Shown: in pieces, positions 4,650-23,604 of the stretch | Numbering within the stretch: the first letter of the stretch is position 1 | Layout of the letters: every line of letters starts with the position of its first letter | Assembly (NCBI GenBank): GCA_043767845.1 | Contig: JAYUFZ010000018.1 | Span: 3,312-67,311, forward strand | Direction: 5' to 3' | Source of the DNA: a bacterium | GTDB taxonomy: Bacteria; Patescibacteriota; Saccharimonadia; UBA4664; JBBRNT01 | Length of the DNA stretch: 64,000 nt | Translations under genes and position numbers: made by a program | Notes under the pieces: generated by a model | Databases searched by the model: none | What the model was told of the DNA's origin: nothing | Seen by the model: only the letters and a program-made list of their open reading frames with translations

Positions 4650-4668
4650 GATTGTCTCCTTAGGTGGT

Positions 4669-5328: not shown

Positions 5329-5841
5329 TTAAATTCCTATTAAACGAAGAATGAAGAACATTAGGCTCAATACTATCAGACCGACGACGGCGTTGGCGAT
5401 GCGGTTTTTGGCTTTCTTGATAGCATCCGGGCTGCCCTGGGAGGAAATGAACTGTATCCCCGACACAATAATAACCAGCGCCGCCAACCCGCCAATAATC
5501 CCAAACAACCAGTTGATGGCGAATTCTAAGAGGGCGAAAATGGGGTTTTTATTCGTGCAGTTGAGTGTTAGGCCGGGAGTTGTAACCTTATCGCAGGTGT
5601 ATGGATCAGGTTGTGCAGGATTATTGCCAACTGCGGTACTGGTGTGGCTGTTGCAGTAAGCAACGCCTCCATCATCCTTAATCTCGTTCTCTGGAATAAC
5701 TGTCACGCCATCCGGGCAAAGCGCAGCCGCTCGAGCTACGGGAACGGAGGAGGGTTGAAGAGCTAGCCCGATTAAACCCAGTATAATTTGGAGAAATATC
5801 CCAAACGAAAGCATTAACACAAATTTGTAAAAACGTTTCAT
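5329..5841 (-). CDS. T4SS pilin-like paralog 5 with Cys-rich extracellular insertion
   Basis: Start uncertain (ATG 5841 MKRFYKF... or 5904). N-terminal TM, then a ~80-aa segment with 6 Cys (CPDG..YCNSH..YTCDK..LNCTNK). C-terminal 'IIGGLAALVIIVSGIQFISSQGSPDAIKKAKNRIANAVVGLIVLSLMF' matches the paralog motif. Confidence 0.45.
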   Translation of the reverse strand: MKRFYKFVLMLSFGIFLQIILGLIGLALQPSSVPVARAAALCPDGVTVIPENEIKDDGGVAYCNSHTSTAVGNNPAQPDPYTCDKVTTPGLTLNCTNKNPIFALLEFAINWLFGIIGGLAALVIIVSGIQFISSQGSPDAIKKAKNRIANAVVGLIVLSLMFFILRLIGI

Positions 5842-5957
5842 TGCCGTGATTGTAGCCGAATTCAGGTTGCAAGCGCAAGGGGAGGGCTGTGGAGTAGACT
5901 CCAAGCAAAGCCGTTAATTCAACCTTTTTACTATCTTTAAGCCCTATTTGCCAGCGT

Positions 5958-6037: not shown

Positions 6038-8617
6038 ATGAGACATTTCTTCAAAAAATTTAGCCACACACCCCTTGTGCTTGGCCTTGGCGCCGTGGCG
6101 CTAGCTGTTGCAGTCCTTTTGAGCCCGGCCAAAGCAATGGCGGCCAGCGAAAGCTATTTCTATGGCCCGAGCTCCAATTTCAACACCGTCGTCGGCCAAA
6201 ACGGCGTCTTCGCCAAACCGACAGCCTTTACGCTAGCTTCGGAAACTGCTGATGCCAGGACTTATACCGCTACCCAATCCGTCACCTGCAGCAGCAAACC
6301 GGCCACTTCGACGCTTACACTGGTGGCCAAAAAAACCGACGGCAGCGGAAGCTTGGCAGTCGACGCTGCCACCGCCAGCTGCTATACCAGCGCCCCCGAT
6401 GCCACCATAGCTGTAGCCGACACCCAGGCGGCTGCCAAGCCGACAGTTCAGACTGCCGCAGCTGGGACTCCCGCGACAAGCAGACCCGCCGTCAAGCGAT
6501 GTGATGGTGGAGTTCTTACTTGGTTTCTATGTTCGCTCTATGATTGGATACTCAAATCAATCGACCAGATTGAACAAAACGTCATCGTACCCTTCCTCAA
6601 GATAGACCCGCTGGTCTTTGGAGACGCCAACAACCCCGGGTATGCCATTTGGCAAGGCGTGCGTACTCTAGCAAACGTCGTCTTTGTCTTGGCCTTTTTG
6701 GTCATTATATTTGCCAACACTCTTTCGCTGTCACTTGATAGCTACTCACTCAAAAAAACTCTGCCCAAGCTTGTAGCCGCGGCTATCCTGGTGCAGTTCT
6801 CATACTTAATCGTTGGGCTGGCCATCGACCTTACCAATATCGTTGGCTCTGGCCTAGGTGATTTGGTCATGACGCCCTTCAAGGTCGCCCAGCAGACCCA
6901 TATTAGTAATGGTGTAGCGGCGGGCCTCTGGGGCGTCGGCATCGCTGGTAGTATTTCCGCTACCTTGGCGCTCGCTAGTGGCGTGCTGACCGGTGGCATT
7001 CTATTCGTATTAATCGGTGCTTTCTTCGCAGTATTGGGCGTATTCTTAACGCTCGTGGCACGGCAGATTCTCGTGACACTACTGCTTATACTCTCTCCCT
7101 TGGCCTTCGTTGCTTGGGTGCTACCAAATACTAGCCATTACTTCACTATGTGGCGCAAATCGCTGACACGGCTACTAGTGATGTACCCGATTGTCGTTTT
7201 ACTGTTTGTGAGCGGCAAAATATTTAGTACCGTTACAGTGGCAGCCAACGGTGGTGGCGCAGGTAATGACACAATTCGTTCCCTTATAAGTGTCGTCGCT
7301 GGCGTTATTCCACTCTTCCTAATCCCTGCCGCCTTCAAATTTGCCGGTGCCGCGCTCTCAACAGTAGATGGCCTCATGCAGACAGTCCATGGCCGTAGCC
7401 GCAAAGCCTTCGAGGGATCGGGAGTTTACGAGCGGGCAAAAGCCCGTACAGACCAGCGCCGCACCGAACTGGCTAGCGGAAATAAGATTAAGTTCCTGGG
7501 CTCCAAGAAACTAGGCGACGCAATTACGGGCAATAGCCTCACGACATTAACAGCTCAGGGTCTGCCAGGCCTACTCTCGTATGGGGCCGATCACGCGCGG
7601 GCAAGCCTCAAGGGCGTTCCTTATGCTGGCTCGCACCAAGACGTCAAGGCTGTCTCTGACTTCATGAAAGAACGCAACGCCTGGGCTAAACGCCTTGAAG
7701 AAGAAGGCTTAAGCTTCAATGCCTATGCCGTACTAAGTAGAGGCAATAAGTGGGCCGACAAAGAAATAACTGACCTTAATGGCAAAGCTCAAACTGCTGC
7801 TACATCATCGCAAACTGCTGCTCAAACTGCTGCGAACTTCACGGCTGCTGCTCAAGCCTCTCGCCAAGCTGCGCAACAAGCAACAGCCGCGGGCAATACG
7901 ACCCTCGCAACGCAACTCAGCCAAACAGCCACCCAGCAAGATAGCGAAGCTTCCCGCCAGACGGCAATTTCCACGAGCCAGGCACGCAAGCACAGCGGCT
8001 TTCTTAGTGAAGTTAGCTCCATGCAAGGGGCAAAGCTGGAAGCAAGCCGCTATATGGGCGTCAGCGCCGCCCGTGTAGCTGCATTTAAACACCTTTCTGA
8101 CATCGATGTAGCTGGTGAGGACGACCTGAATGCACTTAAAAATTACTCTGGTATGGACGGAGGCTCAACAGTCGGTAAGTTGCTCGCTACCCAGAATTGG
8201 GAGCAACTAAAAGAAGGTGCACGAAAGACTAATGTACACTTGGCTTATAAGAATGTTGATGGCAGTATTGACAACACTGAGCTCTACAAGTTTGTTCAAA
8301 AGAAGAATAAAACAGCCTGGGCTGATTACTCGCTGGATGCCATCCATCACATGGCAGAAACCGGCATCTTGCATGAATTAGCAAAAGATGAAGGTATGCG
8401 CAAAACACTTACTGGAGCAACAAGCCTAGAGGGTGGTCCAAGCCTGGCTGCCCCGCAGGACGTCTTAGTACGCAAAATTCTCGCTGAAACCGACCCTGAT
8501 CCAGCCGTGCGAATCAATGGAACTTTCTCAAGCTACAACAAAAATACGGTCAAGACCTTTACTAAGGCCCAAAAGGACCAATCCAAAGCGAGCGCTGATA
8601 CTCTCGATTTCTCATAG
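6038..8617 (+). CDS. VirB6/TrbL-like T4SS polytopic membrane protein (paralog 1) with secreted N-domain and low-complexity C-terminal tail
   Basis: Signal peptide; conserved 'CDGGVLTWFLCSLYDWILKSIDQ...GYAIWQGVRTLANVVFVLAFLVIIFANTLS' block; about six TM segments. Paralogous to the next gene. Tail is Gln/Ala/Thr-rich. Confidence 0.6.
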   Translation: MRHFFKKFSHTPLVLGLGAVALAVAVLLSPAKAMAASESYFYGPSSNFNTVVGQNGVFAKPTAFTLASETADARTYTATQSVTCSSKPATSTLTLVAKKTDGSGSLAVDAATASCYTSAPDATIAVADTQAAAKPTVQTAAAGTPATSRPAVKRCDGGVLTWFLCSLYDWILKSIDQIEQNVIVPFLKIDPLVFGDANNPGYAIWQGVRTLANVVFVLAFLVIIFANTLSLSLDSYSLKKTLPKLVAAAILVQFSYLIVGLAIDLTNIVGSGLGDLVMTPFKVAQQTHISNGVAAGLWGVGIAGSISATLALASGVLTGGILFVLIGAFFAVLGVFLTLVARQILVTLLLILSPLAFVAWVLPNTSHYFTMWRKSLTRLLVMYPIVVLLFVSGKIFSTVTVAANGGGAGNDTIRSLISVVAGVIPLFLIPAAFKFAGAALSTVDGLMQTVHGRSRKAFEGSGVYERAKARTDQRRTELASGNKIKFLGSKKLGDAITGNSLTTLTAQGLPGLLSYGADHARASLKGVPYAGSHQDVKAVSDFMKERNAWAKRLEEEGLSFNAYAVLSRGNKWADKEITDLNGKAQTAATSSQTAAQTAANFTAAAQASRQAAQQATAAGNTTLATQLSQTATQQDSEASRQTAISTSQARKHSGFLSEVSSMQGAKLEASRYMGVSAARVAAFKHLSDIDVAGEDDLNALKNYSGMDGGSTVGKLLATQNWEQLKEGARKTNVHLAYKNVDGSIDNTELYKFVQKKNKTAWADYSLDAIHHMAETGILHELAKDEGMRKTLTGATSLEGGPSLAAPQDVLVRKILAETDPDPAVRINGTFSSYNKNTVKTFTKAQKDQSKASADTLDFS

Positions 8618-8637
8618 ATTCACCGTCACGTTTTTAA

Positions 8638-8670
8638 ATAGACCACCCATTCTCAGCGGTCTATTTTTTT
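8638..8670 (+). terminator. rho-independent terminator (TAGACC-acccattctcagc-GGTCTA + T8)
   Basis: Hairpin followed by TTTTTTTT, 20 nt after the stop of VirB6-like paralog 1. Confidence 0.6.
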
Positions 8671-8699
8671 TGCCCCGCCGATGTAGTACCATAACTAGT

Positions 8700-11600
8700 A
8701 TGAGAAGAGGTGTAGCAAAGGCTTGGTTAGCGGCATTGGGGCTGTCGCTAGTTTTGCCATTCCTGATTTCTGAAGGCGCTCTGGCCGCCCCACTTAGAAA
8801 AGGTGTTTGGCAAAATGATTCTGCCATTCTTTTTGATGCAAAAACCTTCATCAACAAAACTGGCGACGGGTCTGGCTCTTTTGTGTATGCCAAAGATAGT
8901 AAAGGTGTCGATATTCCTACATCCGACAATAATAATATTTATTGTGTTAAGGATGGAGATAAGATATTTGTGCAACTGGGACAAACTTACAGCGACTTTA
9001 GTACAAATTACGGCATCCCATTCTATGTAATTCGCGATATAAACGATGCTCATGATCGAGCCAACTATGATGTATATGCAAGACTTCTCGTCAATAATAA
9101 CGGTGCAGTATTAACACAGACTCAGTTTAATAGTAAAAAAGGTAGTGAGTCAGTACCAATCAGCTATTATATCCAGTGTCGCAAGACTCAAGCTGAAGAG
9201 CCTATTGAGCTTACAAATGCCTCTGTATCAACTGACGCGTATGCCTGGAAATGGAAAAACGAAATTGATTCCACGAATGGTAAGAAGGCTTGGATATTAA
9301 ATAGCACTGATCCCAAATTCCCTGTAGGCTCCTACGTTTGGCAGGCGGATACAAACCATGATGGCTGCAAAGAATATATCGTACCTAGTGCCGATGGTAC
9401 TAAAGGCAAAAGATATCATGGCGGAGGAAACTCAGCTGGAACTCCACCGCACTGTATCTACGACGATCCGCCAGAAGATATTACTATTGCTAACGCTACC
9501 CATAAAGACGATACGACGGATCCCGGTACCTCCCCTGGTAATCCAGTAAATCCAGGCGGATCAGGCAAGGCTAGTTGTGATGCTGGCGTCCTCGGATGGT
9601 TCTTGTGTCCAGTAATTCGCATGGCCGTGAACCTCTATCAGATTTTGAGCGACCAAGTCATCAAACTACTCGATCTAGGGTCTCTTGAAAGTGGTAGCAA
9701 TGTATTTCTTATATGGCAGAATATGCGCAATTTGGCCAATGTGCTCTTTGTATTAATCTTCCTGATTATCATATTCTCGAACACTCTCTCAATAGGTATT
9801 GATAATTACACCTTTAAAAAGATGCTCCCACGCCTCGTTGCCGCAGCGGTTCTTGTTCAGTTTTCCTGGGTAATCATGACCCTACTATTTGATATCACAG
9901 CGGCAGTTGGAGCGGGGATCGGTGACCTTATTAGTCTGGCAGTAGGTAGCGGTGTACCGAGTGCAGGTAGTACACCTAAAGGCTTTGCGCTAGTCGGAAC
10001 GGCCTTCGGGTTGCTTGGCATTGGCGGGGGGGCGATCGCTGCCATTGTACTTTTTCCTGAGCTCCTGATCCTAGCGCTTCTCTTTACAGTTGGGGCCCTC
10101 TTCGGAATCATGGCAGTATTCTTTACCATTACGATACGTTCTTTCTTGCTTTCCATACTAGTGGCAATTGCGCCGCTAGCTTTTGTGGCTTGGATCCTAC
10201 CAAATACCGAGAGCTACTTTAAAACCTGGTGGAAGACACTTATTCGACTGCTGCTCATGTATCCAATTATCAAGGCGATGTTCGCCTTCGCCGAGGTAGG
10301 CGGCCTACTTACGGTAGGATCAAATTTCTCTAATTTGCATAATGGGCTCGATAAGGCGATGGCGGGCGTTATGGCCGCCCTTTTGCCAATTGTAGCCTTC
10401 TACGCTACCACAAAAGTCTTTACCTGGGCGGGCGGTGCGATGTCGCTGTTTAGCAATGCAGTCAACAAGCGGGCTAGATCGGCCCAAGCGCGCATCGCTA
10501 AGTCCAACGTGCGACGAGACGCAAAAGTCGGGCTTACGAATCGGGTTGCAAACTTCAAAGCTGGTGGTGGGCTTAAGGTGCCACTAAGTTCTAGTCCTAT
10601 CCTAAACAGTGACTCCAGGCTGGGTAGGGCCGCAGCTGGGGCTGCGCGTATAGCTACCCTGACTTCCAAGAATAATGCTACAAGAGGTCGTAATACTGCT
10701 GCAAAGGCAGCTGGGGAAGCAATGGCACTTGAAGGCTGGACGGCGGATGATTATAAAATGCAGATGGGCCAAAAAACTTACTACGACAGCCAGACCGCCG
10801 ATCTCAAAAAGAAAGTCCAATCAGGTGAACTCACGCAGGCAGAGGCAGATCTTAAGCAGTCTAAGCTAAAAGCCAGTCGAGACCGTACCGAGAAGTATTG
10901 GGGAAGTAGTTCGAGGTCTCTTGCTGCTCAACAAAACCTCACTTCAAATGGCTTAGTCGACGACAGTACCCGACAAAACATTATTGACCGGTTCGGCAAG
11001 GACCAGTTTGCCCAGCAACTTTGGACTAATTCAGCAGCTACTGCACGAAACTCTAATCCCCAGCTTATGTTTACAAGCCTGGAGAGCGATGCAGCAGGCA
11101 AGCCGGTAATTGATCGAGCAGGGCTTAAGAGTCATCTGGCTAAGCAGAATCAAGCCACCTGGGCAAGCTTCAGTGAACCGGCTATTCAATCTATGGCCGA
11201 TAACGGTATCCTTGACGAATTCGCCAATGCCAGTAGCTCGAATGCCGAGCTTCTCCTTTCACTTCGATCAAACGAAGGCGGCCCTAGTATTGGTGCTGCT
11301 CAGCAAGCAATTATTGCCGGGGCAGGCACGCACAAAGACGACGCCGGCGTAATTCACAACCCTGGGTCCGTCAACAGGGCGATTGATGCAGTAGCTGCGT
11401 CCAGGGCAGCTGCACGGGCCACTGTAGGGACACCGGCAGGTTCAACAACAACTACCACAACAACTGCCGGCGGTGTTAGTGGCTCAGCGGCCAGCGCGTG
11501 GGCTCCGCCAAGTGGCGGCCTACCAGTCGGCAGCACAGTCCCAAGTATAGGTGGCGTTACCCCAGTCGCGACTCCAGTACCGACCGCGAGCGGTAAGGTG

Positions 11601-12398
11601 GCTTCCGTTGGAGGCTCCAGTTCTGGCGGTGTACTTGGCGGCGTTCTTGGTAGCAGTGGATCTTCAGGCGGCGGCGGTTCATACAGTCCAGGAGTTACGG
11701 CCTCAGCCGTTAGCAGCACACCGGGAAACCCCGGTGCCAACCCAAATACTTCCCGGATTACCCCACCGAGCTCAGTTGGCTGGACACCGACAGCTAGTGG
11801 CTCAGGGCTAGTAATCCCACCGAGCTCCGGCGCCCCGGCACCTACCGTATCAGGCCCGTCAGCACCATCACCAGAAGAGTTAGCCGAACGTGTTGAGCGA
11901 AGCGTGTTCGACGCTACAGCTGCAGCAAGAAAGGCAGCCGATGCAGGAGCTGCAGCAGCAGCCGCTACTTCAACCCCAACGGGCGCATCATCTGGCACCA
12001 CCACAGACTATGCCCCCGGATCAGGCATAAGCAACCCGGATATCGACGTTAAGGTCGAAGCCCCGAGCTCAGCAACAGTCCTCCCCTCGACAGCAGGTGC
12101 AGTACCATTCAGCGCAGGAGCGCCAGCTAGTACAGGGAATAGCAGCGCAACTGGTAGCCCAGCAGCAGGCATGGCCAATCCAGCCCCAGCTCTAGCCACG
12201 CCACCATCAAGCAAGCCTGTCGCGGGTCCAACAAATATGCCCACCAGCGAACCAAACAGCGGCCCAGCAGCTGCAAGCCCGACCCTGGACATCAACTCCA
12301 CGGAGCTACCCAGCCGCCCCTCACTCGGTGAAATAATTAGACCGACCGTAGCCTCCCCAGATGAGACCCCTCCGGCCGATCCACCAACGACTCCATAG
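8700..12398 (+). CDS. VirB6/TrbL-like T4SS polytopic membrane protein (paralog 2), 1232 aa, with ~600-aa Ser/Thr/Pro/Ala/Gly-rich C-terminal tail
   Basis: Start moved to ATG 8700 (MRRGVAKAWLAALGLSLVLPFLISEGALA = signal peptide), downstream of the terminator. Conserved 'CDAGVLGWFLCPVIRMAVNLYQ...FLIWQNMRNLANVLFVLIFLIIIFSNTLS' plus TM bundle. The tail has TTTTTT, SSGSSGGGGS and AAAAAAT runs. Confidence 0.6.
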   Translation: MRRGVAKAWLAALGLSLVLPFLISEGALAAPLRKGVWQNDSAILFDAKTFINKTGDGSGSFVYAKDSKGVDIPTSDNNNIYCVKDGDKIFVQLGQTYSDFSTNYGIPFYVIRDINDAHDRANYDVYARLLVNNNGAVLTQTQFNSKKGSESVPISYYIQCRKTQAEEPIELTNASVSTDAYAWKWKNEIDSTNGKKAWILNSTDPKFPVGSYVWQADTNHDGCKEYIVPSADGTKGKRYHGGGNSAGTPPHCIYDDPPEDITIANATHKDDTTDPGTSPGNPVNPGGSGKASCDAGVLGWFLCPVIRMAVNLYQILSDQVIKLLDLGSLESGSNVFLIWQNMRNLANVLFVLIFLIIIFSNTLSIGIDNYTFKKMLPRLVAAAVLVQFSWVIMTLLFDITAAVGAGIGDLISLAVGSGVPSAGSTPKGFALVGTAFGLLGIGGGAIAAIVLFPELLILALLFTVGALFGIMAVFFTITIRSFLLSILVAIAPLAFVAWILPNTESYFKTWWKTLIRLLLMYPIIKAMFAFAEVGGLLTVGSNFSNLHNGLDKAMAGVMAALLPIVAFYATTKVFTWAGGAMSLFSNAVNKRARSAQARIAKSNVRRDAKVGLTNRVANFKAGGGLKVPLSSSPILNSDSRLGRAAAGAARIATLTSKNNATRGRNTAAKAAGEAMALEGWTADDYKMQMGQKTYYDSQTADLKKKVQSGELTQAEADLKQSKLKASRDRTEKYWGSSSRSLAAQQNLTSNGLVDDSTRQNIIDRFGKDQFAQQLWTNSAATARNSNPQLMFTSLESDAAGKPVIDRAGLKSHLAKQNQATWASFSEPAIQSMADNGILDEFANASSSNAELLLSLRSNEGGPSIGAAQQAIIAGAGTHKDDAGVIHNPGSVNRAIDAVAASRAAARATVGTPAGSTTTTTTTAGGVSGSAASAWAPPSGGLPVGSTVPSIGGVTPVATPVPTASGKVASVGGSSSGGVLGGVLGSSGSSGGGGSYSPGVTASAVSSTPGNPGANPNTSRITPPSSVGWTPTASGSGLVIPPSSGAPAPTVSGPSAPSPEELAERVERSVFDATAAARKAADAGAAAAAATSTPTGASSGTTTDYAPGSGISNPDIDVKVEAPSSATVLPSTAGAVPFSAGAPASTGNSSATGSPAAGMANPAPALATPPSSKPVAGPTNMPTSEPNSGPAAASPTLDINSTELPSRPSLGEIIRPTVASPDETPPADPPTTP

Positions 12399-12534: not shown

Positions 12535-13356
12535 ATGGGCCAGTACAAAGTCCCACAAAACGTTGAGGCGGAAGACAAGATCCTTGGGCCACTGACGCTC
12601 AAGCAGTTTATCTATGCCATCATTGCCGTCGGGGTGGCTGTCGTGACTTACCTCATCGGCAAGTACCTGCCATTCGTCTACATTGCCGGTGTTCCGCCAG
12701 CCCTGCTCTTTGCCCTGCTAGCCACTCCCCGAGGCGATAAGCAGCCCTTCGAGGCCCTCTTCCTGGCCCTGGTCAGCTTCACGGTCAAGCCGCGCAAGCG
12801 CGTATGGCTCAAAGACCCAATCGCCGAAGTCTTCATGATCGAAGCCCCCAAGCCAGTGGAGGAGGCCCCTGCCGTCGATTCCCGCCAAGTCCACGGGCAA
12901 CTCGAGAAATTATCCCAGATCATCGATACTCGCGGCTGGGCGGCCAAGCAGCCTGACATCCAGGAGCCCGACTCCACGTACTTCGATAATCTCACTACCG
13001 ACGACCGCCTAGCCTCGGTGGAGTACGTAACGGTTGGCGACATTAATAGCGACATTAGTGTGGCCGACGACATTCTAGACTTCAAAAACAACCCGTCGGC
13101 CCAAAACCTCGATCAGCTCATCGAAGACAGCGTGGCCAACGTCCGCCTAGAGGCCATGCAGAAGATGCGCGAGCAAGCCAACCATCCAGCCCCAACAACT
13201 GGCGGCGGAGCAATGACCCCGCAAGCTTCTAATGCTATACTGAGACAAGCGATGAGTAGTTCGGAGTTAACGGTTAGCCAAGTTGCGGCTCAAGCCCAGC
13301 GCTACGGACGACTCGAAGAAGGTCAGAAAGTGGAGATATATAATGGCAGCAACTAA
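12535..13356 (+). CDS. PrgI/VirB3-like T4SS membrane protein with acidic C-terminal extension
   Basis: N-terminus 'KVPQNVEAEDKILGPLTLKQFIYAIIAVGVAVVTYLIG...' matches the PrgI-family signature (KIxGPLTxKQ + TM hairpin). TATAAT lies 9 nt before the ATG. Confidence 0.6.
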   Translation: MGQYKVPQNVEAEDKILGPLTLKQFIYAIIAVGVAVVTYLIGKYLPFVYIAGVPPALLFALLATPRGDKQPFEALFLALVSFTVKPRKRVWLKDPIAEVFMIEAPKPVEEAPAVDSRQVHGQLEKLSQIIDTRGWAAKQPDIQEPDSTYFDNLTTDDRLASVEYVTVGDINSDISVADDILDFKNNPSAQNLDQLIEDSVANVRLEAMQKMREQANHPAPTTGGGAMTPQASNAILRQAMSSSELTVSQVAAQAQRYGRLEEGQKVEIYNGSN

Positions 13357-14416
13357 TCAAAAGATTGCCAGCAATCCAAATAGTCAGCTGAAAAGCACGC
13401 AAAACAGCATGCTTATTTCAGAGATTAAGGATGGGATTGTGATACTCAAGGACGGCACTATGCGGGCCGTAGTGCTAGCAAGCGCCATCAACTTCGACTT
13501 GATGAGCCGCCAGGAACAAGACGCCGTCGAGTACAGCTACCAGGGCTTCCTGAACTCACTACATTTCCCAATCCAGATCGTCGTGCGCTCTCAGAAAATC
13601 GACCTCGACCGCTACATCGAGACACTTACCGAACTGCGCGCCAACCAAGGCAATGAGCTGCTCGGACTACTCATGGAAGATTATATTGCCAACATCAAGG
13701 CCCTCATCGACGAAGTAAACATTATGAATAAGCAGTTCTATGTGGTCGTGCCCTACGACCCACCAGTCATTACCAAAACTGGCTTTTTCGATAAGCTCGG
13801 CGGCATCGTGAAGGGGGCTGGCGTTACAGTGGTGAGCGAGCAGGACTTCGCCAACTATAAGACTGAGCTGTCGCAGCGGGTCGCACTGGTAGCCAGCGGA
13901 CTCAACCAGCTGGGCATCCGGGCCATCCCGCTCAATAGCCAAGAACTCATCGACCTCTACTACTCGACATACAATCCCGACGTCGCCGCCAACCAAAAAC
14001 TCATCGACAGCAGCCAGCTGCAAACGCCTGTCGTTTTGCGTAGCGATCAGCCAACCAACACCAGCTACCGCCAAGCCCTGCCAGAAGCCGCTGCCGACTT
14101 TACTGTAGCCCCGGCTTCATCACCTATCGACAACCAGCCGGCAATGCAGATACCGACCCGCTCGGACATCCCGACCTCCAATATGCCAATGGTCGCCCCC
14201 GAAGAACCCCCGACGGCACCAATTACGCAGCCAGGCCCGCTCCCCGAGTACTACGCCCAGCCAGCCGCGCCCGTTCAAGCTCCTGTGGCGGGTGACCCGA
14301 ATGCCGTCATCGACAATCCCAACGCCTACGATCCTTTCATCATCCAGCAGAACCAGGCGGCCTTAGCCGCTGCCCAGGCAGTCGCACCAACTACCACTGA
14401 ACCAGGAGCACAGTAA
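13343..14416 (+). CDS. VirB4 N-terminal domain protein (separate ORF) with Pro-rich disordered C-terminus
   Basis: Start at ATG 13343 overlaps the upstream stop (ATGGCAGCAACTAA). 'IKDGIVILKDGTMRAVVLASAINFDLMSRQEQDAVEYSYQGFLNSLHFPIQIVVRSQKID' resembles the N-terminal region of Gram-positive VirB4/TraE-family ATPases. Tail is P/A/Q-rich. Confidence 0.5.
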   Translation: MAATNQKIASNPNSQLKSTQNSMLISEIKDGIVILKDGTMRAVVLASAINFDLMSRQEQDAVEYSYQGFLNSLHFPIQIVVRSQKIDLDRYIETLTELRANQGNELLGLLMEDYIANIKALIDEVNIMNKQFYVVVPYDPPVITKTGFFDKLGGIVKGAGVTVVSEQDFANYKTELSQRVALVASGLNQLGIRAIPLNSQELIDLYYSTYNPDVAANQKLIDSSQLQTPVVLRSDQPTNTSYRQALPEAAADFTVAPASSPIDNQPAMQIPTRSDIPTSNMPMVAPEEPPTAPITQPGPLPEYYAQPAAPVQAPVAGDPNAVIDNPNAYDPFIIQQNQAALAAAQAVAPTTTEPGAQ

Positions 14417-14418
14417 TC

Positions 14419-16269
14419 ATGGCCTTCGGAAAAAAAGTTGATCCAAACGCTCAGGCAGAGGCGGTAAAGCGCCAAGAACAGGCTGAAGCCGAGCAGATTT
14501 ACCGCCAGGGAATCGTCTCGCTGCGCGACCTGATTGCTCCGCCATCGCTGGAGATTGAGTCTGGCTATTTCCGCATCGGCAAGCGCTTTGCTCGGACAAT
14601 ATTCGTCTACGGCTACCCCCGCCAAATATTCACCGGCTGGATGTCACCGATCATAAATCTCGATGAAGTGCTGGACCTTAGCATTAATATTTATCCGGTC
14701 GAGTCAGCCGTCGTTTTAAATAACCTGAAGCGTAAGGTAGGCCAGCTAGAGGCCGATTTCACCATCAACCAGGAAAAGGGGAGAGTACGCGACCCCGGGC
14801 TTGAAGCCGCCATCCAGGACGCCGAGGAATTGCGCGACAAGCTCCAGGTCGGCGAGGAGCGCTTCTTCCGTTTCGGGCTATATGTCACGATGTACGCTGG
14901 CACGCTTGAGGAACTCAATCAAGTACAGCGCAAGATCGAAGGCATATTCGGCCAATCACTTATCTATACCAAGCCAGCTACCCTTCAAATGGAGCAGGGC
15001 TTTAATTCCAGCCTACCGCTCGGCGCCGACCAGCTCCAAGTGTCGAGAAATATGGATACTGGTTCGCTTTCGACAAGCTTCCCCTTCACCTCGGCCGAAC
15101 TCAGCCGCAATGAAGGCGTGCTCTACGGCCTCAACCGCCACAATAACGGTCTAGTGCTCTTCGACAGATTTAGCCTGGAAAATGCCAATATGGTTGTCTT
15201 CGCTAAATCCGGTGGTGGTAAATCCTTCGCCGTGAAGCTTGAAGCCGTACGCAGCCTGATGCTCGGCGTTGAGATATTGATTATCGATCCCGAGAACGAG
15301 TACCAGACGCTCTGCGACGCAGTTGGCGGTAGCTACCTTCGCCTCAGCCTAGCCTCGGCCACCCGCCTGAATCCCTTCGATCTGCCGCACGTACTCGATA
15401 GCGAGGATGCCGACAACGCTTTGCGCGCCAATATTATTACCCTCCATGGCCTTTTGCGACTGATGATGGGGGGTGCCCAAGCCCAAGCCATGGGTGCGGC
15501 TACCGGCGGCATGGTCTCGAGTGCCAATGCTCTCAGCCCAGCCGAGGACGCTGACCTCGACGTGGCCATCATAAATACCTACGCCCGCGCCGGGATTACC
15601 AATGACCCACTGACCCATGGCGCCACCCCACCAACCATGAACGATCTCTACAACACGCTAGTAAGTATGACTGGCAACGGTCCAGCCCTAGCCCAGCGTC
15701 TGCGTAAATACACCACGGGTACTTTTTCTGGAATCTTTAGCCAGCAGTCCAACGTCGATATCAATAATAAGTTTGTGGTCTTTAATATTCGTGACCTAGA
15801 AGACGAGCTCCGCCCAGTGGCTATGTACATTGTGCTCAACTACATTTGGAACCGGGTCAAAAGTGATAAGCGCAAACGTATTCTGATAGTCGACGAAGCC
15901 TGGCAGCTCATGAAGTACGATGACTCCGCCAACTTCATGTTCTCTATAGCCAAGCGCGCCCGTAAGTATTACCTCGGCCTCACTACTATTTCGCAAGATG
16001 TGGAAGATTTCTTAAGCTCCAGGCTTGGTAGGGCAGTGGTCTCCAACTCCTCACTTCAACTCTTGCTCAAGCAAGCGCCCTCTGCCGTCGACCTCATAGC
16101 CGATACCTTCAAGCTGACCGACGAGGAAAAGAAACGCCTTACCCAATTCCCGGTGGGCGAGGGCCTCTTCTTCGCGGGCCTCAACCATATTATTATTAGA
16201 ATACTGGCCTCACAAACTGAGTCGCAACTCATAAGCACGAACCCGCAACGAAGAGGGGACGGAGTATAG
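14419..16269 (+). CDS. virB4: VirB4/TraE-family T4SS ATPase (ATPase portion)
   Basis: Walker A 'VVFAKSGGGKSFAVK', Walker B 'ILIVDEAWQLM', and 'RTIFVYGYPRQIFTGWMSPI' typical of VirB4. Starts 2 nt after the previous stop, in a different frame. Confidence 0.8.
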   Translation: MAFGKKVDPNAQAEAVKRQEQAEAEQIYRQGIVSLRDLIAPPSLEIESGYFRIGKRFARTIFVYGYPRQIFTGWMSPIINLDEVLDLSINIYPVESAVVLNNLKRKVGQLEADFTINQEKGRVRDPGLEAAIQDAEELRDKLQVGEERFFRFGLYVTMYAGTLEELNQVQRKIEGIFGQSLIYTKPATLQMEQGFNSSLPLGADQLQVSRNMDTGSLSTSFPFTSAELSRNEGVLYGLNRHNNGLVLFDRFSLENANMVVFAKSGGGKSFAVKLEAVRSLMLGVEILIIDPENEYQTLCDAVGGSYLRLSLASATRLNPFDLPHVLDSEDADNALRANIITLHGLLRLMMGGAQAQAMGAATGGMVSSANALSPAEDADLDVAIINTYARAGITNDPLTHGATPPTMNDLYNTLVSMTGNGPALAQRLRKYTTGTFSGIFSQQSNVDINNKFVVFNIRDLEDELRPVAMYIVLNYIWNRVKSDKRKRILIVDEAWQLMKYDDSANFMFSIAKRARKYYLGLTTISQDVEDFLSSRLGRAVVSNSSLQLLLKQAPSAVDLIADTFKLTDEEKKRLTQFPVGEGLFFAGLNHIIIRILASQTESQLISTNPQRRGDGV

Positions 16270-16272
16270 ACC

Positions 16273-19266
16273 ATGGCACTACTGGAGGATGAGAAATTAG
16301 TTCCGGCAGACGACTTACCCAAGCACAGCAAGGGCGAAAGTAAGCTGAGCGAGTCAGTCTCCGACTCCGACGTTGATAGCCGTTTCAATGAATTAGCAAG
16401 CTCCACGCCGGCCATTTCCGATAACGAAGCAGCCAATCGCTACGCCGAGCAAACCGCCCCCGAGGATCAGTACACCAGTGATGGCAACGAACGCCCAAGC
16501 AGATTCCAAGGTACCGTAAAGAAGCTGCGGAAGAGGCGAGGACTACTCATTGGCGGCACTATCACCGCCGCACTGGTAGGTTTTTTAATATTTATCATCC
16601 TATTTCTGATCGGGTTTAAGCTCAACCACATTAAGAACCTCATGCTAGACTACGAGTTCGCGAGCTTTAATCGAGCTCTTTCTAAAGAAATGAACCACAT
16701 GATAACCGAGGACGCTATACTGTCCGAGGGAAGTGGCAGACTTCCTCAGATCGATACTCCAAGTCTAATTGATAAGCTGCGCGGCTACGACCCCGATACC
16801 ATCCTTCGTAATCTTGGGAATGCTGGAATGGAGCTCGATTTCGAGCCAGGTCGCTTGGGTGTCAAGGGTAAGTTAAGGAGTATCACCACACCAGAAGGTG
16901 AAGTCTACTGGCGCGAGGGGGCGGCGGGAACACCGCCGGCTAATGCAAAATCGCTATCAGACGGCGAATTCTTAACCAAGTATAAATCCACAATAGATAC
17001 TCAATTGGTTGATGAAAGAGGTTTTATCCGACGAAGCGTCTGGAAAGACCTTCGCGAGAATAGCGGCATCTCCTTCGCTAAATGGAAGGAATTCCTCGAG
17101 AAATTCAAGGCAATAGACCCTACACCAGAAGAAGCAAGAGCTACTTCACGAGCTGAGAATGACGCCACTATAGCCGACGGGCAAACCATCACTGGAGAAA
17201 ATGTAGACGGACTTGAGGAGGGTGCCAAGCAGGCTGCAGCCGATCATAAGGTCGGCCTGCTGGAGGAGGAGATTAAGCCCAGGTTAAGCGAGCGATTTGG
17301 GCTCGGAAGTAAGATCGCCACAGTGTCACAGGTAGTTTTCTATTTAACTGTTATATGTATTGCCCACGACATATATGCCTCCCTAGAGAAAATTATGGTC
17401 AATAAAAGTGATAGTCTCATGCGTGAAGCAGCCGACTTAAACACCAAGGCAGATCAGCAGAAATATGGTAGTGATCAAGTAACAACTGCCGCTATTAACC
17501 AATCGAATAACGAGTATGATGGCATGGAGGCAGGCGCGGCCTACCAAAGAGCAGCGGGCGAGCCAGTTGCTCTCGACAGTAAGGGTAACCCAGTCAATGA
17601 TCTTCCTGAAGAAGACTACCCCCAGCAAATCATAGGTATGAAGCTAAATGCTTTTGTTACCATCGCCAAAACCGCTGATACCGTGGCTACCGCTGCTGCT
17701 GCTGCTATTATTGCAGGGCCGGAAGCAGCGGCTGTCTGCGTTGCTTCTGACTTCCTGAGCAAAATACCCTTTATTGGACGAGCTGCTGCCTTCATAGCTG
17801 GACACACAATTTCAAAACTATGTAAAAACGCAGCTGATGTTTTTTATAGAGTCGTCTGTAAGCCAATTCTTGATCCTAGATTTCAAATTGGCCTAGCAGT
17901 AGCCGAAATTGGACTCGTCTGGCTTGATGGTGGCCTAAAGGCAGTACTAGCCGCATTTACAGAGGCACTACCTAGACTGGCGCTGCAATACGCCGGAACT
18001 GAGATCTTATTTGGGCATATTATCCCAAGCCTCATGGAAGATCTATCAGGCTTTCACCATAGCGGCCAAGAGACTGCTCCAACGCGTATCGCCAAGGTGG
18101 ACGCAGGCGATAATCTATTAAGAAACTCCACGGCAATGGCAACTGGTGCCCATAAAATTAGTACCAAGAAAGCCCTGCGCGACCAGGCGGTTGCCATAAA
18201 AGAGCGTCAAGATTCCATTCGTAAGCAGAGTCTAGCCTATCGCTGGTTCAACCTCGACAACAACTATTCACTTGCTACCCGCTTCCTGGTAGCAATTCCG
18301 ACCGGCCCACGGAGTATGATGGCAAAGATCAATAGCTTTACCGCCGCCATGCGCAACCCGTTTAGCATTGTGGCTTCATTGAGTACACCAGTTCAAGCCA
18401 GCATAGAGGACTACGGTCCAGAGGCACTCTACGGTATCCAACAATATGGCTGGGATGATACTGAGCTCGATCCGAAGGATGCAACTTTTAACTTTGATAC
18501 CAATACCCACTACGTGGAATCGAAGTACGAAGATTTGCAGAAGAAGTACGGCCAATGTTTCCAGGGCAAGCTCATTGATAGAGAGCTGAAAGGCGCCTTT
18601 GGCGACAGTAAATATGATAACTGTAAGGATGTGGACGCAAAAAGGTTTGGTAAGTACGTACTTGATTGTTACTCGGTAGAACAACTGCTCTCCCAAGGAT
18701 CGACGGACGATACCTATAATAATAGTGACTGTTCAGCGGTTGTGAAAGGCGAGAAAGGGGCTGACAGTACGCCCAACCCATCTAACGACGATACACCAGA
18801 CGATGCCGACATCGGCGCAGGAATTGATACTTCGAGTGTACCCTGCGCCGCAGGGACCGACGCCGGCATTCAAGAAACGTATCAAAAGAATTCCATTCAC
18901 CTCTGCACCGTCGGTGGCATTACCGTAAACGCATCTATCTCCGGCCAGCTAAATAGCTTGTTAACCAAGGCTAAAGCCGCAGGCATAACCCTCACTGGTA
19001 GCGGCTTCCGCAGTTACAAAACACAAATACAGCTCCGAAAAGATCACAATTGTGCCGATATTTACACGGCCTCTGCCAAGACTTGTAATCCGCCCACGGC
19101 AAGACCAGGTACCTCTATGCATGAGCAGGGCTTAGCAATAGATTTCTCGGGTATCGGCCAGCACGATCCAACAAACCCTAAATTCATCTGGCTCTCGGCA
19201 AATGCTGGTCCCGACTTCCAGAACTTACCCTCAGAATCATGGCATTGGTCGACAAATGGACGCTAA
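16273..19266 (+). CDS. membrane-anchored T4SS-associated cell-wall hydrolase, C-terminal peptidase M15 (VanY / D-Ala-D-Ala carboxypeptidase-like) domain
   Basis: Single TM (LLIGGTITAALVGFLIFIILFLIGF) after a ~95-aa cytoplasmic N-terminus. C-terminal 'FRSYKTQIQLR...GTSMHEQGLAIDFS' matches the M15 Zn-binding SxHxxGxAxD motif. Confidence 0.6.
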   Translation: MALLEDEKLVPADDLPKHSKGESKLSESVSDSDVDSRFNELASSTPAISDNEAANRYAEQTAPEDQYTSDGNERPSRFQGTVKKLRKRRGLLIGGTITAALVGFLIFIILFLIGFKLNHIKNLMLDYEFASFNRALSKEMNHMITEDAILSEGSGRLPQIDTPSLIDKLRGYDPDTILRNLGNAGMELDFEPGRLGVKGKLRSITTPEGEVYWREGAAGTPPANAKSLSDGEFLTKYKSTIDTQLVDERGFIRRSVWKDLRENSGISFAKWKEFLEKFKAIDPTPEEARATSRAENDATIADGQTITGENVDGLEEGAKQAAADHKVGLLEEEIKPRLSERFGLGSKIATVSQVVFYLTVICIAHDIYASLEKIMVNKSDSLMREAADLNTKADQQKYGSDQVTTAAINQSNNEYDGMEAGAAYQRAAGEPVALDSKGNPVNDLPEEDYPQQIIGMKLNAFVTIAKTADTVATAAAAAIIAGPEAAAVCVASDFLSKIPFIGRAAAFIAGHTISKLCKNAADVFYRVVCKPILDPRFQIGLAVAEIGLVWLDGGLKAVLAAFTEALPRLALQYAGTEILFGHIIPSLMEDLSGFHHSGQETAPTRIAKVDAGDNLLRNSTAMATGAHKISTKKALRDQAVAIKERQDSIRKQSLAYRWFNLDNNYSLATRFLVAIPTGPRSMMAKINSFTAAMRNPFSIVASLSTPVQASIEDYGPEALYGIQQYGWDDTELDPKDATFNFDTNTHYVESKYEDLQKKYGQCFQGKLIDRELKGAFGDSKYDNCKDVDAKRFGKYVLDCYSVEQLLSQGSTDDTYNNSDCSAVVKGEKGADSTPNPSNDDTPDDADIGAGIDTSSVPCAAGTDAGIQETYQKNSIHLCTVGGITVNASISGQLNSLLTKAKAAGITLTGSGFRSYKTQIQLRKDHNCADIYTASAKTCNPPTARPGTSMHEQGLAIDFSGIGQHDPTNPKFIWLSANAGPDFQNLPSESWHWSTNGR

Positions 19267-21049
19267 ACGGTATCTTCTCAACCTCACCATGATCGTCATG
19301 ATGTTCTCTTCTATGGTGATTACTCCAGCCGCTTATGGCTTTTCAGACGCAGATCGTAATGCCATGCTCAATGATAGTGTTTGGTTTGACTCCTCCAATG
19401 TTACATGCGGCACCAACTCCGGCGGTACTGCACCTGGTAGTGGCGGTTTATATAGCCCCTTCTATCCCACAGGAGCAAATGAAGCACAATTGGCACAGAG
19501 CATCGTAGACTACATCACCAAAAGGCAGCCGAGTTCTCCACTCATTCCACTAGCGGGGAGCTTCGTTTCGCTTGGCAAAGCAGCTAATGTAAACCCAGCG
19601 ATGGCTGTCGGCATGTCTCAGATTGAGACCTCTTTCGCGACTGCTGGCCACGCCGCACCCCCGCTCTATAATTTCTTTAATGTGAGAAATGGACCAGGGG
19701 GTACGTTTGGTAGTATGCCCGGCTACATTGGGGCACTACAGAACTACTATGATCTGATTAGTGGTCCTGTTTACCTGAGCCCACCAACAAGCTTCACAAC
19801 GGTAAATGAGATCGTAAATAAATATGCACCACTCGGTGATGGCGCCAATGACCCCACAGCCTACACGAACGTAGTGAATAATGCTATGAAGGACATCCTT
19901 GGTGGAGCCGGCGCAACTGCCGCAAGCGGGTCGGCTGACACAGGCGCTACCACCAGCGGTACACTTACGAGCCTGCCCACGAGCGTCCCGGAACCATACC
20001 GCACCCTGTTTCCGAAAGCAGCCCAAGCCTTCAATATGGATCTTGGGATATTAACTACCATATTTTATACGGAGAACCGCGGGTTCCCCAATCCACCACC
20101 ACCCTATGGGACGGGACGTGCATGGAGAACATCGTCAGCTGGTGCGCAGGGTCCATTCCAGTTTGTGCCGGGTACCTGGGCAGGACAGGTCGCTGCTGTG
20201 AAAACGGCACTAGGCAAAACCAGCGTGGACATCCTTGATCTCACCGATGCCGCCTATGGCGCGGCACACTTCCTGGAATCGCTTGGTGGTACAGCTGGTA
20301 TTCCACTGGGCAGCAAAGATAACCCCAAACAACGGCCAAGCGTTATCGATGTATTCGCATCATATAATGGAGGCCCGGGCTATCCCGTACCTTTAGTCGC
20401 CGAGACATCACAGTACATCGATATTGCCACGAAGTTCTACCTTGCACTCACTGGTGGCAGTCTCGGCACGACCCCGACTATTTGTGGGGGCGGGGGCGGC
20501 GGTATAGGAATTGGCACCGATGGCTTTGTCTTTCCACAACGAACCACCAAATCGGCCCTGAAAGCCGCCGGCTTCAATGTAAATTGTGTAAATACGGGTC
20601 CAATTGGCCAATGCCATCACGATTATCTAGCAGCTGATATCTTCAATTCGACCGGAACACCCGTGGTAGCAGCTCGCCCAGGAAGAGTAGTCTCGGCGCA
20701 TGACGGCGGTAATATCAGTACAGGTGGCGGATCAATCGGTATGACCGTCCGAATCTATAGCGACACAGCGTTGGGAGGCGATGGGCTTTGGTATTACTAT
20801 GCCCATATGCTTAAGCCACAAGAATCACCAGCTGGTGGGCTCAAGGTAAAAGACGGCGATATCGTGACTGCTGGTCAGGATTTGGGTGTCGTAGGGACCG
20901 ATGCCGATGCCGAGGGCACGCCATCACACACCCATTTCGATGTGAGCCCCGTAGAAAATAGCTTCCATCGTGGCCACGACGGGAGTGCCGGGCCGCTACT
21001 CGACCCCTATCCAGCTCTAAGAGCAAGTTATGCTAACTTACCGGATTAA
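19256..21049 (+). CDS. bifunctional peptidoglycan hydrolase: lytic transglycosylase (SLT) + M23 (LytM) peptidase
   Basis: Start at ATG 19256 (signal peptide MDAKRYLLNLTMIVMMFSSMVITPAAYG), overlapping the upstream stop. SLT motifs 'YTENRGF...GPFQFVPGTW...AAYGAAHFL'. M23 motifs 'HHDYLAADIF' (HxxxD) and 'HTHFDV' (HxH). Confidence 0.7.
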   Translation: MDAKRYLLNLTMIVMMFSSMVITPAAYGFSDADRNAMLNDSVWFDSSNVTCGTNSGGTAPGSGGLYSPFYPTGANEAQLAQSIVDYITKRQPSSPLIPLAGSFVSLGKAANVNPAMAVGMSQIETSFATAGHAAPPLYNFFNVRNGPGGTFGSMPGYIGALQNYYDLISGPVYLSPPTSFTTVNEIVNKYAPLGDGANDPTAYTNVVNNAMKDILGGAGATAASGSADTGATTSGTLTSLPTSVPEPYRTLFPKAAQAFNMDLGILTTIFYTENRGFPNPPPPYGTGRAWRTSSAGAQGPFQFVPGTWAGQVAAVKTALGKTSVDILDLTDAAYGAAHFLESLGGTAGIPLGSKDNPKQRPSVIDVFASYNGGPGYPVPLVAETSQYIDIATKFYLALTGGSLGTTPTICGGGGGGIGIGTDGFVFPQRTTKSALKAAGFNVNCVNTGPIGQCHHDYLAADIFNSTGTPVVAARPGRVVSAHDGGNISTGGGSIGMTVRIYSDTALGGDGLWYYYAHMLKPQESPAGGLKVKDGDIVTAGQDLGVVGTDADAEGTPSHTHFDVSPVENSFHRGHDGSAGPLLDPYPALRASYANLPD

Positions 21050-22271: not shown

Positions 22272-22538
22272 CTACAAACTCCTCACCGAAATCGCAATCC
22301 GCTCGATGGCCGGATCCCAGGACTTGATTTCGTTTTGCTTAAAACGCAGCTCACTGGATAGGGAAGCGTTAGGGGTAATAATACGCAGGACACCTTTTTG
22401 CAGACTCAATACCCTGGTGGCCCCGGGGTAGCGGCGGTCGAGCTTAGCCTGGATGTCGCCGAGAATATCTTGGCGCTCCATGCCCAGATCGAGCTGCTTG
22501 CGCTTTAAGTAATCACCGAGATTGTTCATTTTATTCAT
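22272..22538 (-). CDS. DUF721-like small protein (conserved recF-downstream gene)
   Basis: Start moved to ATG 22538 (MNKMNNLGDYLKRKQLDLGMERQDILGDIQAKL...), overlapping the recF stop by 8 nt. Position and size fit the DUF721 protein that usually follows recF. Confidence 0.45.
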   Translation of the reverse strand: MNKMNNLGDYLKRKQLDLGMERQDILGDIQAKLDRRYPGATRVLSLQKGVLRIITPNASLSSELRFKQNEIKSWDPAIERIAISVRSL

Positions 22539-23604
22539 GGTTGAGGCTCGTTTCAATGCGTTTATAGTCGGTCGGGATGTCGGCCAGGATATGGTCGGCG
22601 TCGGTGGTGGTAATAATAGTCTGGTAACCGGTGAGCCTAGAAACCAGAAAAGCCCGCCTAGAACTATCGAGCTCGCTAAATACATCGTCAAGCAATAGGA
22701 TCGGTTTACTCTCCAGGTGCTGCTCCATATAGGCAATCTCGGCCAGCTTCATGGCGAGCACGGCCGTACGGGCCTCGCCGCGGGAGGCCAAGTTGGTAAT
22801 GTCATTATTACGAAAAGCCACCTTAAAGTCCTCACGGTGTGGGCCGATGGTGGTGAAGCCAATGGCCATATCGCGGGCAAGGTTGGTCTCCAGCGCCCTT
22901 AGAAAGCTCGCAGCGTAGTCCCCAGTATCAACACTAGCGCTATAGCTGAGAGCAAAGTCGAGCTGCTCGCCGGCTATCTCGCCATAGTGCACCGGAATAG
23001 CCTTGTTGAGGTATTCGATGAGCGCTAGCCTGGCCTCATAGAGCTTGGCTGCAGCAGCCGTCAGCTTCACGTCCCAGGCAAAGATCTGCGAGCGAATCTG
23101 GCCCTCATCAAAACCATCAAGTAGGCTATTGCGCTGTTTGAGCACCCGCCGATATTCAGCCAAAGTCTTAAAATACTCTCTGTCGGTCTGCGACAAAATA
23201 CTATCTAAGTACTGACGGCGACCACTCGGCGCGCCGCTCAGTAGCAAAAGATCATTTGGTTCAAACAACGTCACACCCACGGTGCCAATGTGCTGCACCA
23301 GACTACGCCTTACGCCGCCGTGACTGACGCGCTTTACCAGGCTGCCATCGAGCAAGCCATAGCCAAAACTCAGGTCGGTAGCAGCCGATGACGCCTCGAT
23401 TCGGAAAAAATCCTGATCGTGCGCCACCAGGGCTGGATCCTTGGCGCGAAAAGACTTGGTAATCGCTAAAACGTAGATTGCTTCTAGTAGATTAGTTTTA
23501 CCGCTAGCATTGGGCCCTACAACAACGGTAATACCTTTGCCCAGCTCAAATCTTTGCTCCTTATAAGACCGGAAGTTTACTAGTTTTAGGGAATTTATAA
23601 CCAT
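22531..23604 (-). CDS. recF: DNA replication and repair protein RecF
   Basis: 'MVINSLKLVNFRSYKE...VVVGPNASGKTNLLEAIY' (Walker A) plus an SMC-like C-terminus 'ILLLDDVFSELD'. Confidence 0.9.
   Translation of the reverse strand: MVINSLKLVNFRSYKEQRFELGKGITVVVGPNASGKTNLLEAIYVLAITKSFRAKDPALVAHDQDFFRIEASSAATDLSFGYGLLDGSLVKRVSHGGVRRSLVQHIGTVGVTLFEPNDLLLLSGAPSGRRQYLDSILSQTDREYFKTLAEYRRVLKQRNSLLDGFDEGQIRSQIFAWDVKLTAAAAKLYEARLALIEYLNKAIPVHYGEIAGEQLDFALSYSASVDTGDYAASFLRALETNLARDMAIGFTTIGPHREDFKVAFRNNDITNLASRGEARTAVLAMKLAEIAYMEQHLESKPILLLDDVFSELDSSRRAFLVSRLTGYQTIITTTDADHILADIPTDYKRIETSLNHE

Follow-up and report, generated by a model that had tools for sequence, protein, structure and literature searches.

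A TrsD-like gene directly upstream of a short VirB4-like ATPase gene in a type IV secretion cluster of Saccharimonadia

Among the components of the type IV secretion systems (T4SSs) surveyed in the Candidate Phyla Radiation (CPR, or Patescibacteria), the most abundant is TrsD, a protein remotely homologous to the N-terminus of VirB4: with the MPF_FATA TrsD profile, 2,272 homologues were found in 2,221 assemblies, and 1,664 of the 2,272 are associated with VirB4 or next to it (Quinonero-Coronel et al. 2025, Microb Genom, PMC12102498). The same survey reports that CPR T4SSs are frequently located close to the replication origin, oriC, that TrsD has no assigned function, and that the TrsD homologue of Southlakia epibionticum is among the genes listed as essential. 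According to Wang et al. (2023, Cell, PMC10633639), S. epibionticum needs its T4SS, in which pilins are present and no coupling or relaxase proteins are recognisable, in order to grow on its host bacterium. We cite the homology between TrsD and VirB4 from PMC12102498 only; Guglielmini et al. 2014 do not use the name 'TrsD' in their main text. Here we study two adjacent open reading frames (ORFs), ORF1 and ORF2, in a stretch of 64,000 nucleotides from a Saccharimonadia bacterium (contig JAYUFZ010000018.1, positions 3,312 to 67,311), called the window in what follows. An earlier note on this DNA had read them as a VirB4 divided into two polypeptides. We consider it quite probable that they are a standard CPR T4SS pair, in which a TrsD-like first N-terminal sub-domain and a CD1110-type VirB4 ATPase would assemble in trans.

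Judging from the sequence comparisons given below, the two ORFs are two adjacent, separate genes, and not the product of an error. Both lie on the forward strand. ORF1 (13343..14416) begins with ATG and encodes a stand-alone protein of 357 amino acids, TrsD-like or, in the terms of Pfam, 'TraC-like', that corresponds to the stretch of a single-chain VirB4 up to residue ~220. ORF2 (14419..16269) encodes 616 amino acids, a VirB4-like conjugal-transfer ATPase of the CD1110 family without those first ~220 residues. The coordinates and the peptides quoted in the earlier note proved exact to the base. The whole gene junction occupies positions 14404..14421 of the forward strand: the Shine-Dalgarno sequence of ORF2, AGGAG (14404-14408), lies within the 3' end of ORF1, 10 nucleotides upstream of the ATG of ORF2 (14419-14421), and the stop codon of ORF1, TAA (14414-14416), is separated from this ATG by the two-nucleotide spacer 'tc'. 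ORF1, for its part, has a GGAG ~7 nucleotides upstream of its ATG, visible in the sequence, and its start overlaps the 3' end of a PrgI-like gene by 14 nucleotides. The two ORFs are in different frames, and the frame of ORF2 is open only from 14401, that is, 18 nucleotides upstream of its ATG; there is therefore no hidden long overlap with ORF1. This layout fits a translational coupling of the two genes.

The proteins of the window were scanned with local Pfam-A (E <= 0.1) and with the NCBIfam models. The local Pfam-A scan assigned ORF1 to no family at E <= 0.1; the precomputed annotation of the identical database protein, P0001, and of all 120 listed homologues of ORF1, is PF26593 'TraC-like'. 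The discrepancy may come from the absence of the PF26593 model in the local collection, or from a difference of threshold or filter. With NCBIfam, ORF1 matches positions 91-233 of the 894 positions of VirB4_plasma, the model of Mbov_0397-type VirB4 (E 8.6e-9), and positions 11-78 of the CD1110 VirB4 model. A profile built from 117 homologues of ORF1 was compared by hhalign with the VirB4 of a Bacillus mycoides plasmid, a single chain of 831 amino acids that serves as our reference because the N-terminus of PrgJ, its counterpart in pCF10, is too divergent: residues 17-235 of ORF1 align to residues 25-222 of the reference (probability 97.7%, E 2e-12). AlphaFold2 predicts a folded alpha/beta domain at residues 25-215 (13415..13987, forward strand), with a predicted local distance difference test score (pLDDT) of 85-97. 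When the fold is searched in the PDB with Foldseek, the top 13 matches are all TrwK/VirB4 chains of R388, the best of them being 8rtb_A (E 7.4e-4, probability 1.00, 188 columns). A profile search of the PDB sequences with ORF1 found no VirB4, its sole match being a chance match to a ribosomal protein (E 0.21), so that the link between ORF1 and the solved VirB4 structures rests on fold and not on sequence. The similarity of ORF1 to the N-terminal region of VirB4, which the earlier note had seen, is thus borne out by VirB4_plasma, by the TrsD/TraD model weighed below, by the hhalign comparison with a single-chain VirB4 and by Foldseek.

ORF2 passes the cut-off of the NCBIfam model NF045971 (CD1110), with 373.5 bits for a cut-off of 325, over positions 174-730 of the 752 of the model, and it has Pfam matches to P-loop_TraG, AAA_10 and DUF87. 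Its C-terminal ATPase domain (residues 228-605, 15100..16233, forward strand) is matched by phmmer to 4ag5_A, the crystallised C-terminal domain of the VirB4 of Thermoanaerobacter pseudethanolicus (E 1.4e-44). The Walker A motif GGGKS is found at residues 265-269 (15211-15225) and the Walker B motif ILIVDEAW at residues 488-495 (15880-15903), both on the forward strand; residues G265, G267, K268, S269, D492 and E493 are invariant across 60 homologues. As far as these motifs tell, the ATPase domain is intact and ORF2 is a predicted ATPase. The name 'ATPase ORF', given to it in the earlier note, describes only a part of the protein: the ATPase domain is present, but the second half of the N-terminal region of VirB4 makes up the first ~227 residues. 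This second half (residues ~28-227, 14500..15099, forward strand) is recognised by a weak, sub-threshold Pfam match to CagE_TrbE_VirB at residues 53-200 (E 0.0036), and by colinear hhalign alignments: residues 28-613 of ORF2 align to residues 236-820 of the 831-residue reference (E 3e-47), and ORF2 aligns to residues 223-773 of PrgJ. Since ORF1 aligns to residues 25-222 of the reference and ORF2 to residues 236-820, the two ORFs together make up one VirB4, cut at ~225-235. The comparison with a single-chain VirB4 of Firmicutes, which the earlier note had suggested, thus finds the two ORFs colinear with it, and the same colinearity is seen in the NCBIfam model coordinates of ORF1 and ORF2.

Two ORFs that lie two nucleotides apart in different frames look, at first sight, like the trace of an indel of 1-2 nucleotides: a frameshift introduced in sequencing or assembly, or a mutation that recently turned the gene into a pseudogene, would have split a single-chain VirB4 of ~970 amino acids. 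The related genomes contradict this. They were scanned with ORF2 as query, a choice that does not presuppose the split, taking one genome per species. The best 80 loci were kept, all of them from Saccharibacteria or from Saccharimonadales-type metagenome-assembled genomes (Saccharimonadia), with 67-84% identity to ORF2, and upstream DNA was present in 78 of them. In each of these 78 independent assemblies, as in the window, a stop codon, followed by a new start, stands where a VirB4 made as a single polypeptide of ~750-830 amino acids would continue: a separate TrsD-like ORF ends just before the ATPase gene in 78/78 loci, and the two are fused in 0/78. The two nearest relatives (L086 and L087) have ATPases that are 89-91% identical to ORF2 and the same gene order as the window, namely TrbL_3, PrgI, TraC-like and ATPase. 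The proteins of a large database agree: ORF1 has 3613 homologues there, the best 120 of which are all stand-alone proteins of 242-438 amino acids, mostly 242-260, and the best 120 homologues of ORF2 have 594-743 amino acids and 79-100% identity, none of them reaching the fused length of ~970. Moreover, ORF2 has its own ATG and its own AGGAG in a frame that opens just 18 nucleotides upstream, and joining the frames would not restore a normal VirB4, because the 120-residue tail of ORF1 matches no part of VirB4. Finally, ORF2 is 80-91% identical to its relatives and therefore under strong constraint. The comparative data effectively refute the frameshift artefact, to which we give practically no credence; the claim of a genuine two-polypeptide VirB4 stands, and the orthologous loci, which the earlier note had proposed to check, show the same split.

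The tightness of the junction, with stop and start overlapping or two nucleotides apart, would also suit programmed ribosomal frameshifting or stop-codon bypass, either of which would yield a fused VirB4 beside a short N-terminal product; some bacterial genes do make two products in this manner. However, the junction is far from constant when start codons are assigned, and the distance from stop to start is then measured, in the 78 related loci. The distance is -1 nucleotide, an overlap of one nucleotide, in 53 loci, and +2 nucleotides, as in the window, in 9. It lies between -8 and +5 nucleotides in 69 loci; in the other nine it ranges from 55 to 465 nucleotides, and such spacers imply independent genes. 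The frames of the two ORFs relative to each other are not constant either, with offsets of 2, 1 and 0 in 65, 10 and 3 loci. Variation of this kind in frame and spacing, from -8 to +465 nucleotides, makes a conserved slippery site impossible, and rules out a sequencing frameshift as well; in the window itself, the frame of ORF2 is closed 18 nucleotides upstream of its ATG. We hold programmed frameshifting or bypass to be highly improbable. Both this explanation and the artefact were rejected on the comparative junction data.

There remains the question of what the two chains do. Colinearity and a common break point speak for a simple hypothesis, in which VirB4 is completed in trans by TrsD. The two genes are separate and would be translationally coupled, with stop and start two nucleotides apart here, a one-nucleotide overlap in most relatives, and the Shine-Dalgarno sequence of ORF2 inside ORF1; through this coupling, both chains would be made in roughly equal amounts. 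The TrsD-like chain would bind the ATPase chain non-covalently to form a VirB4-like protomer, which would dock on the PrgI/VirB3-like membrane protein, the product of the gene next upstream, and energise the origin-proximal chromosomal T4SS. In this assembly the TrsD-like part would supply the surface next to VirB3 and the membrane; in the R388 structure described by Macé and colleagues in 2022, the N-terminal sub-domain of VirB4 reportedly sits next to VirB3. Several observations weigh against completion in trans. The ORF1 profile did not detect PrgJ of pCF10 (hhalign, probability 0.1%), and the match between ORF1 and the TrsD of staphylococcal plasmid pSK41 is weak (hhalign E 3.8e-4, probability 36%, 80 columns). 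The NCBIfam TrsD/TraD model (NF041427) matches ORF1 with an E of 6e-8 and with 32.8 bits for a cut-off of 200, which makes ORF1 a homologue, and not a member, of this narrow subfamily. The AlphaFold2 model of ORF2 is poor, with a pLDDT of 54, because the alignment is deep yet composed of sequences that are all ~80% identical. ORF1 evolves faster than ORF2, the identity to relatives being ~50-65% for the former and ~80-91% for the latter, and the lower conservation of ORF1 could reflect a looser or different role. In Gracilibacteria, lastly, TrsD homologues are not adjacent to virB4 (PMC12102498).

The uncoupling in Gracilibacteria and the faster evolution of ORF1 are also what one would expect if the TrsD-like protein, descended from the N-terminus of VirB4, were now an independent adaptor or regulator, such as a detachable membrane anchor or a receptor for a substrate or partner, with its variable tail and the motif in it as docking element. 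The lack of an assigned function for TrsD leaves room for such a role, and so do the tails: among the 109 scorable homologues of ORF1, a long tail, defined as at least 60 residues after the conserved YNPD..KLI motif, is found in 19, these tails are variable, and a short motif is conserved in the closest clade. Nor was a coupling-protein gene recognised among the genes of the cluster that were scanned in the window, and the T4SS of S. epibionticum is similar in this respect (PMC10633639). However, the TrsD-like gene is strictly adjacent to the ATPase gene, and translationally coupled with it, in 69 of the 78 loci, the break point is conserved across phyla, and the motif may be due to the common ancestry of six close relatives. 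Without the TrsD-like chain, furthermore, ORF2 would lack the very sub-domain that is said to lie next to VirB3 in R388. We regard the independent adaptor as unlikely, though deserving of attention, and retain the pair that assembles in trans as the preferred explanation.

The tail of ORF1 (residues ~236-357, 14048..14413, forward strand) is disordered, roughly 110-135 residues long, rich in Pro, Ala and Gln, lineage-specific, and variable in length and sequence. Of the last 135 residues of the protein, those that follow YNPD..KLI, 24 are P, 24 are A and 14 are Q, and residues 220-357 have a pLDDT of about 50. Compared with the usual homologues of 242-260 amino acids, the extension is ~100-110 amino acids long, and the '~90' of the earlier note was a fair estimate of this Pro/Ala/Gln disordered tail. 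The same note had taken the tail, together with the polar leader of ORF2, as a sign that the split is genuine. The split does not rest on this argument, as most relatives, with 242-260 amino acids and no long tail, are split too; and, because most relatives are tailless, the tail is a lineage add-on and not the remnant of a linker. The ORF1 homologues of the two nearest relatives are tailed too, with 438 and 380 amino acids. The tails cannot be aligned with each other, with the exception of one motif, which in ORF1 reads NPNAYDPF (residues 325-332, 14315..14338, forward strand) and is followed by a low-confidence helix predicted by AlphaFold2 (residues 333-344, 14339-14374, forward strand). 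The pattern [FY]DP[FY], mostly after NPxx, is shared by the six closest relatives with a long tail (P0001-P0004, P0009 and P0018), and is absent from the other 103 of the 109 scorable proteins, 13 with a long tail and 90 with a short one. NPxx[FY]DP[FY] may be a short linear binding motif, or merely the sign that these six proteins are closely related. Other proteins of the cluster, for example the protein of 1293 amino acids at 8517-12398, have long low-complexity tails, so the tail of ORF1 may reflect a general tendency of the lineage instead of a specific function. It is rather doubtful that the long disordered tail, with its motif and helix, is a docking peptide, which would tether or regulate the ATPase, or recruit a partner or a substrate in a T4SS that has no coupling protein nearby. 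If it is, a freed sub-domain of the N-terminus of VirB4 would have become a regulatory or adaptor subunit of the essential secretion machine of an epibiont.

We now turn to the genes that surround the pair. Immediately upstream, on the forward strand, lies the gene of a PrgI-family (VirB3-like) membrane protein of 273 amino acids (12535..13356), whose residues 5-91 match the Pfam family PF12666 PrgI (E 3.8e-13); PrgI also precedes the TrsD-like gene in the two nearest relatives and in a locus of C. difficile (L083). Beyond residues 5-91, this protein has a long polar C-terminal extension, and its close relatives, of 295 and 298 amino acids, are similar in length. The next gene upstream (8517..12398, forward strand) encodes the large polytopic membrane protein of 1293 amino acids mentioned above. 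The local Pfam scan gave no significant match for it; the gene in the same position carries PF19590 TrbL_3 in both nearest relatives, and the protein is, by synteny only, probably VirB6/TrbL-like. It has a multi-pass membrane core and ends in a low-complexity C-terminal tail, several hundred residues long, in which S, T, P, A and G abound. Its start is uncertain, as the annotated ATG overlaps the preceding ORF of 859 amino acids (6038-8617) by 100 nucleotides. A T4SS pilin-like gene is found on the reverse strand at 5329..5904 (PF18895 T4SS_pilin, E 5.6e-10), and two small ORFs of the reverse strand, at 3815-4189 and 4278-4721, are candidates for further pilins. Upstream of the cluster, and on the opposite strand, a comFC-like gene (2273-2959, reverse strand) encodes a phosphoribosyltransferase domain and a double zinc ribbon.

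Directly downstream of ORF2, two large genes for putative cell-wall hydrolases, with a VirB1-like role, occupy 16273..21049 of the forward strand. The first (16273-19266) encodes 997 amino acids with a VanY-type peptidase domain at residues 884-976 (E 3.1e-9), no domain being recognised in its first ~880 residues; the second (19202-21049) encodes 615 amino acids with a Peptidase_M23 match (E 3.2e-10) and a weak SLT match. As listed, these two ORFs overlap by 65 nucleotides. Just downstream of the T4SS cluster, the reverse strand carries a recF-like gene (22531-23604), dnaN (23777-24889) and dnaA (25163-26560). The presence of these three genes at 22.5-26.6 kb indicates that the cluster is origin-proximal. 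The window therefore contains the components of a CPR T4SS, VirB4, TrsD-like, PrgI/VirB3, VirB6-like and pilin, clustered near oriC.

How does this locus compare with the systems already described? The VirB4s of monoderms in the CD1110 family, including PrgJ of pCF10 (796 amino acids) and the 831-residue protein of Bacillus mycoides, are single chains, where the window has two. The 831-residue VirB4, encoded on plasmid NZ_CP036106.1 (L084:3926-6421), has an N-terminus that is closer to the TrsD-like proteins of Saccharimonadia than the staphylococcal TrsD is, and may be useful as a fused point of comparison when the fission or fusion is to be dated. TrwK/VirB4 of R388, known from cryo-electron microscopy (7o41, 7o42, 8rtb, 8rtd), is also a single chain, of 823 amino acids, and belongs to a diderm system. 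The similarity of ORF1 with TrwK is that of a shared fold and not one of detail, with an identity of ~12%, low TM-scores (0.27) and a root-mean-square deviation of ~8 Å, and ORF2 has a weak sequence match to the C-terminal region of TrwK.

The two-chain layout, on the other hand, is shared with plasmids. Those of the pGO1 subclass of MPF_FATA, pGO1 and pSK41, have the TrsD/TraD and TrsE/TraE pair as a stand-alone short protein and a short ATPase. In pSK41, trsD (227 amino acids) follows a small TrsC-like gene and lies directly upstream of the gene of TraE, a VirB4-like ATPase of 672 amino acids with DUF87; the break falls at the same point as in the window, residue 37 of ORF2 aligning to residue 36 of TraE. 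The pSK41 system is conjugative and plasmid-borne, with a relaxase and a VirD4-like protein, whereas that of the window lies on the chromosome close to oriC and includes pilin genes. A tblastn search of a plasmid collection, with the folded domain of ORF1 as query, matched 90 records, mainly from Bacillus, Clostridium and Paenibacillus. On a Pontibacillus plasmid the order is pilin-like, large membrane protein, small protein, a hypothetical protein of 274 amino acids, a CD1110-family VirB4 of 621 amino acids, and a peptidoglycan metalloendopeptidase; in the record of C. difficile BI1, from the same collection, it is PrgI, a hypothetical protein of 322 amino acids, an ATPase of 640 amino acids, a large hypothetical protein, and a peptidoglycan metalloendopeptidase. 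The order PrgI, TrsD-like, VirB4, peptidoglycan hydrolase thus recurs in both of these records, as well as in the closest relatives of the window. The match on pBMB0558 of B. thuringiensis, with fragmented and transposon-disrupted 'TrsD' annotations, is uninformative. TrsD-like matches are also found on megaplasmids of the haloarchaeon Haladaptatus (H17 and H24; E 1e-4) and of the actinobacterium Miltoncostaea (H7; E 9e-18), and these tblastn matches hint at a wider distribution of the stand-alone N-terminal gene, outside Firmicutes and Patescibacteria.

The closest system remains the TrsD and VirB4 T4SS of Patescibacteria. The earlier note had called the division of VirB4 unusual; it is instead the rule in Saccharimonadia, has been published across Patescibacteria (PMC12102498), and extends to plasmids of pSK41/pGO1 type and to other plasmids of Firmicutes. 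The two-gene arrangement is already known, both from the published TrsD and VirB4 and from the models PF26593 of Pfam and TrsD/TraD of NCBIfam, which cover the domain of ORF1. For annotation, this means that 'frameshifted or pseudogenised virB4' is the wrong label for such a pair, and that the name TrsD-like (VirB4 N-terminal sub-domain) protein can replace 'hypothetical protein' for the product of the upstream gene. On the biological side, the T4SS of Patescibacteria is reported to be essential for the epibiotic lifestyle, and TrsD is without assigned function. Clade, gene pair, neighbours (PrgI/VirB3-like, VirB6/TrbL-like, pilin, peptidoglycan hydrolases) and origin-proximal site are the same in the Patescibacteria system and in the window. 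There is no difference in kind between the two: ORF1 has 357 amino acids where ~250 are typical, and ends in a long Pro/Ala/Gln tail, which alone is particular to this copy or to its sub-lineage.

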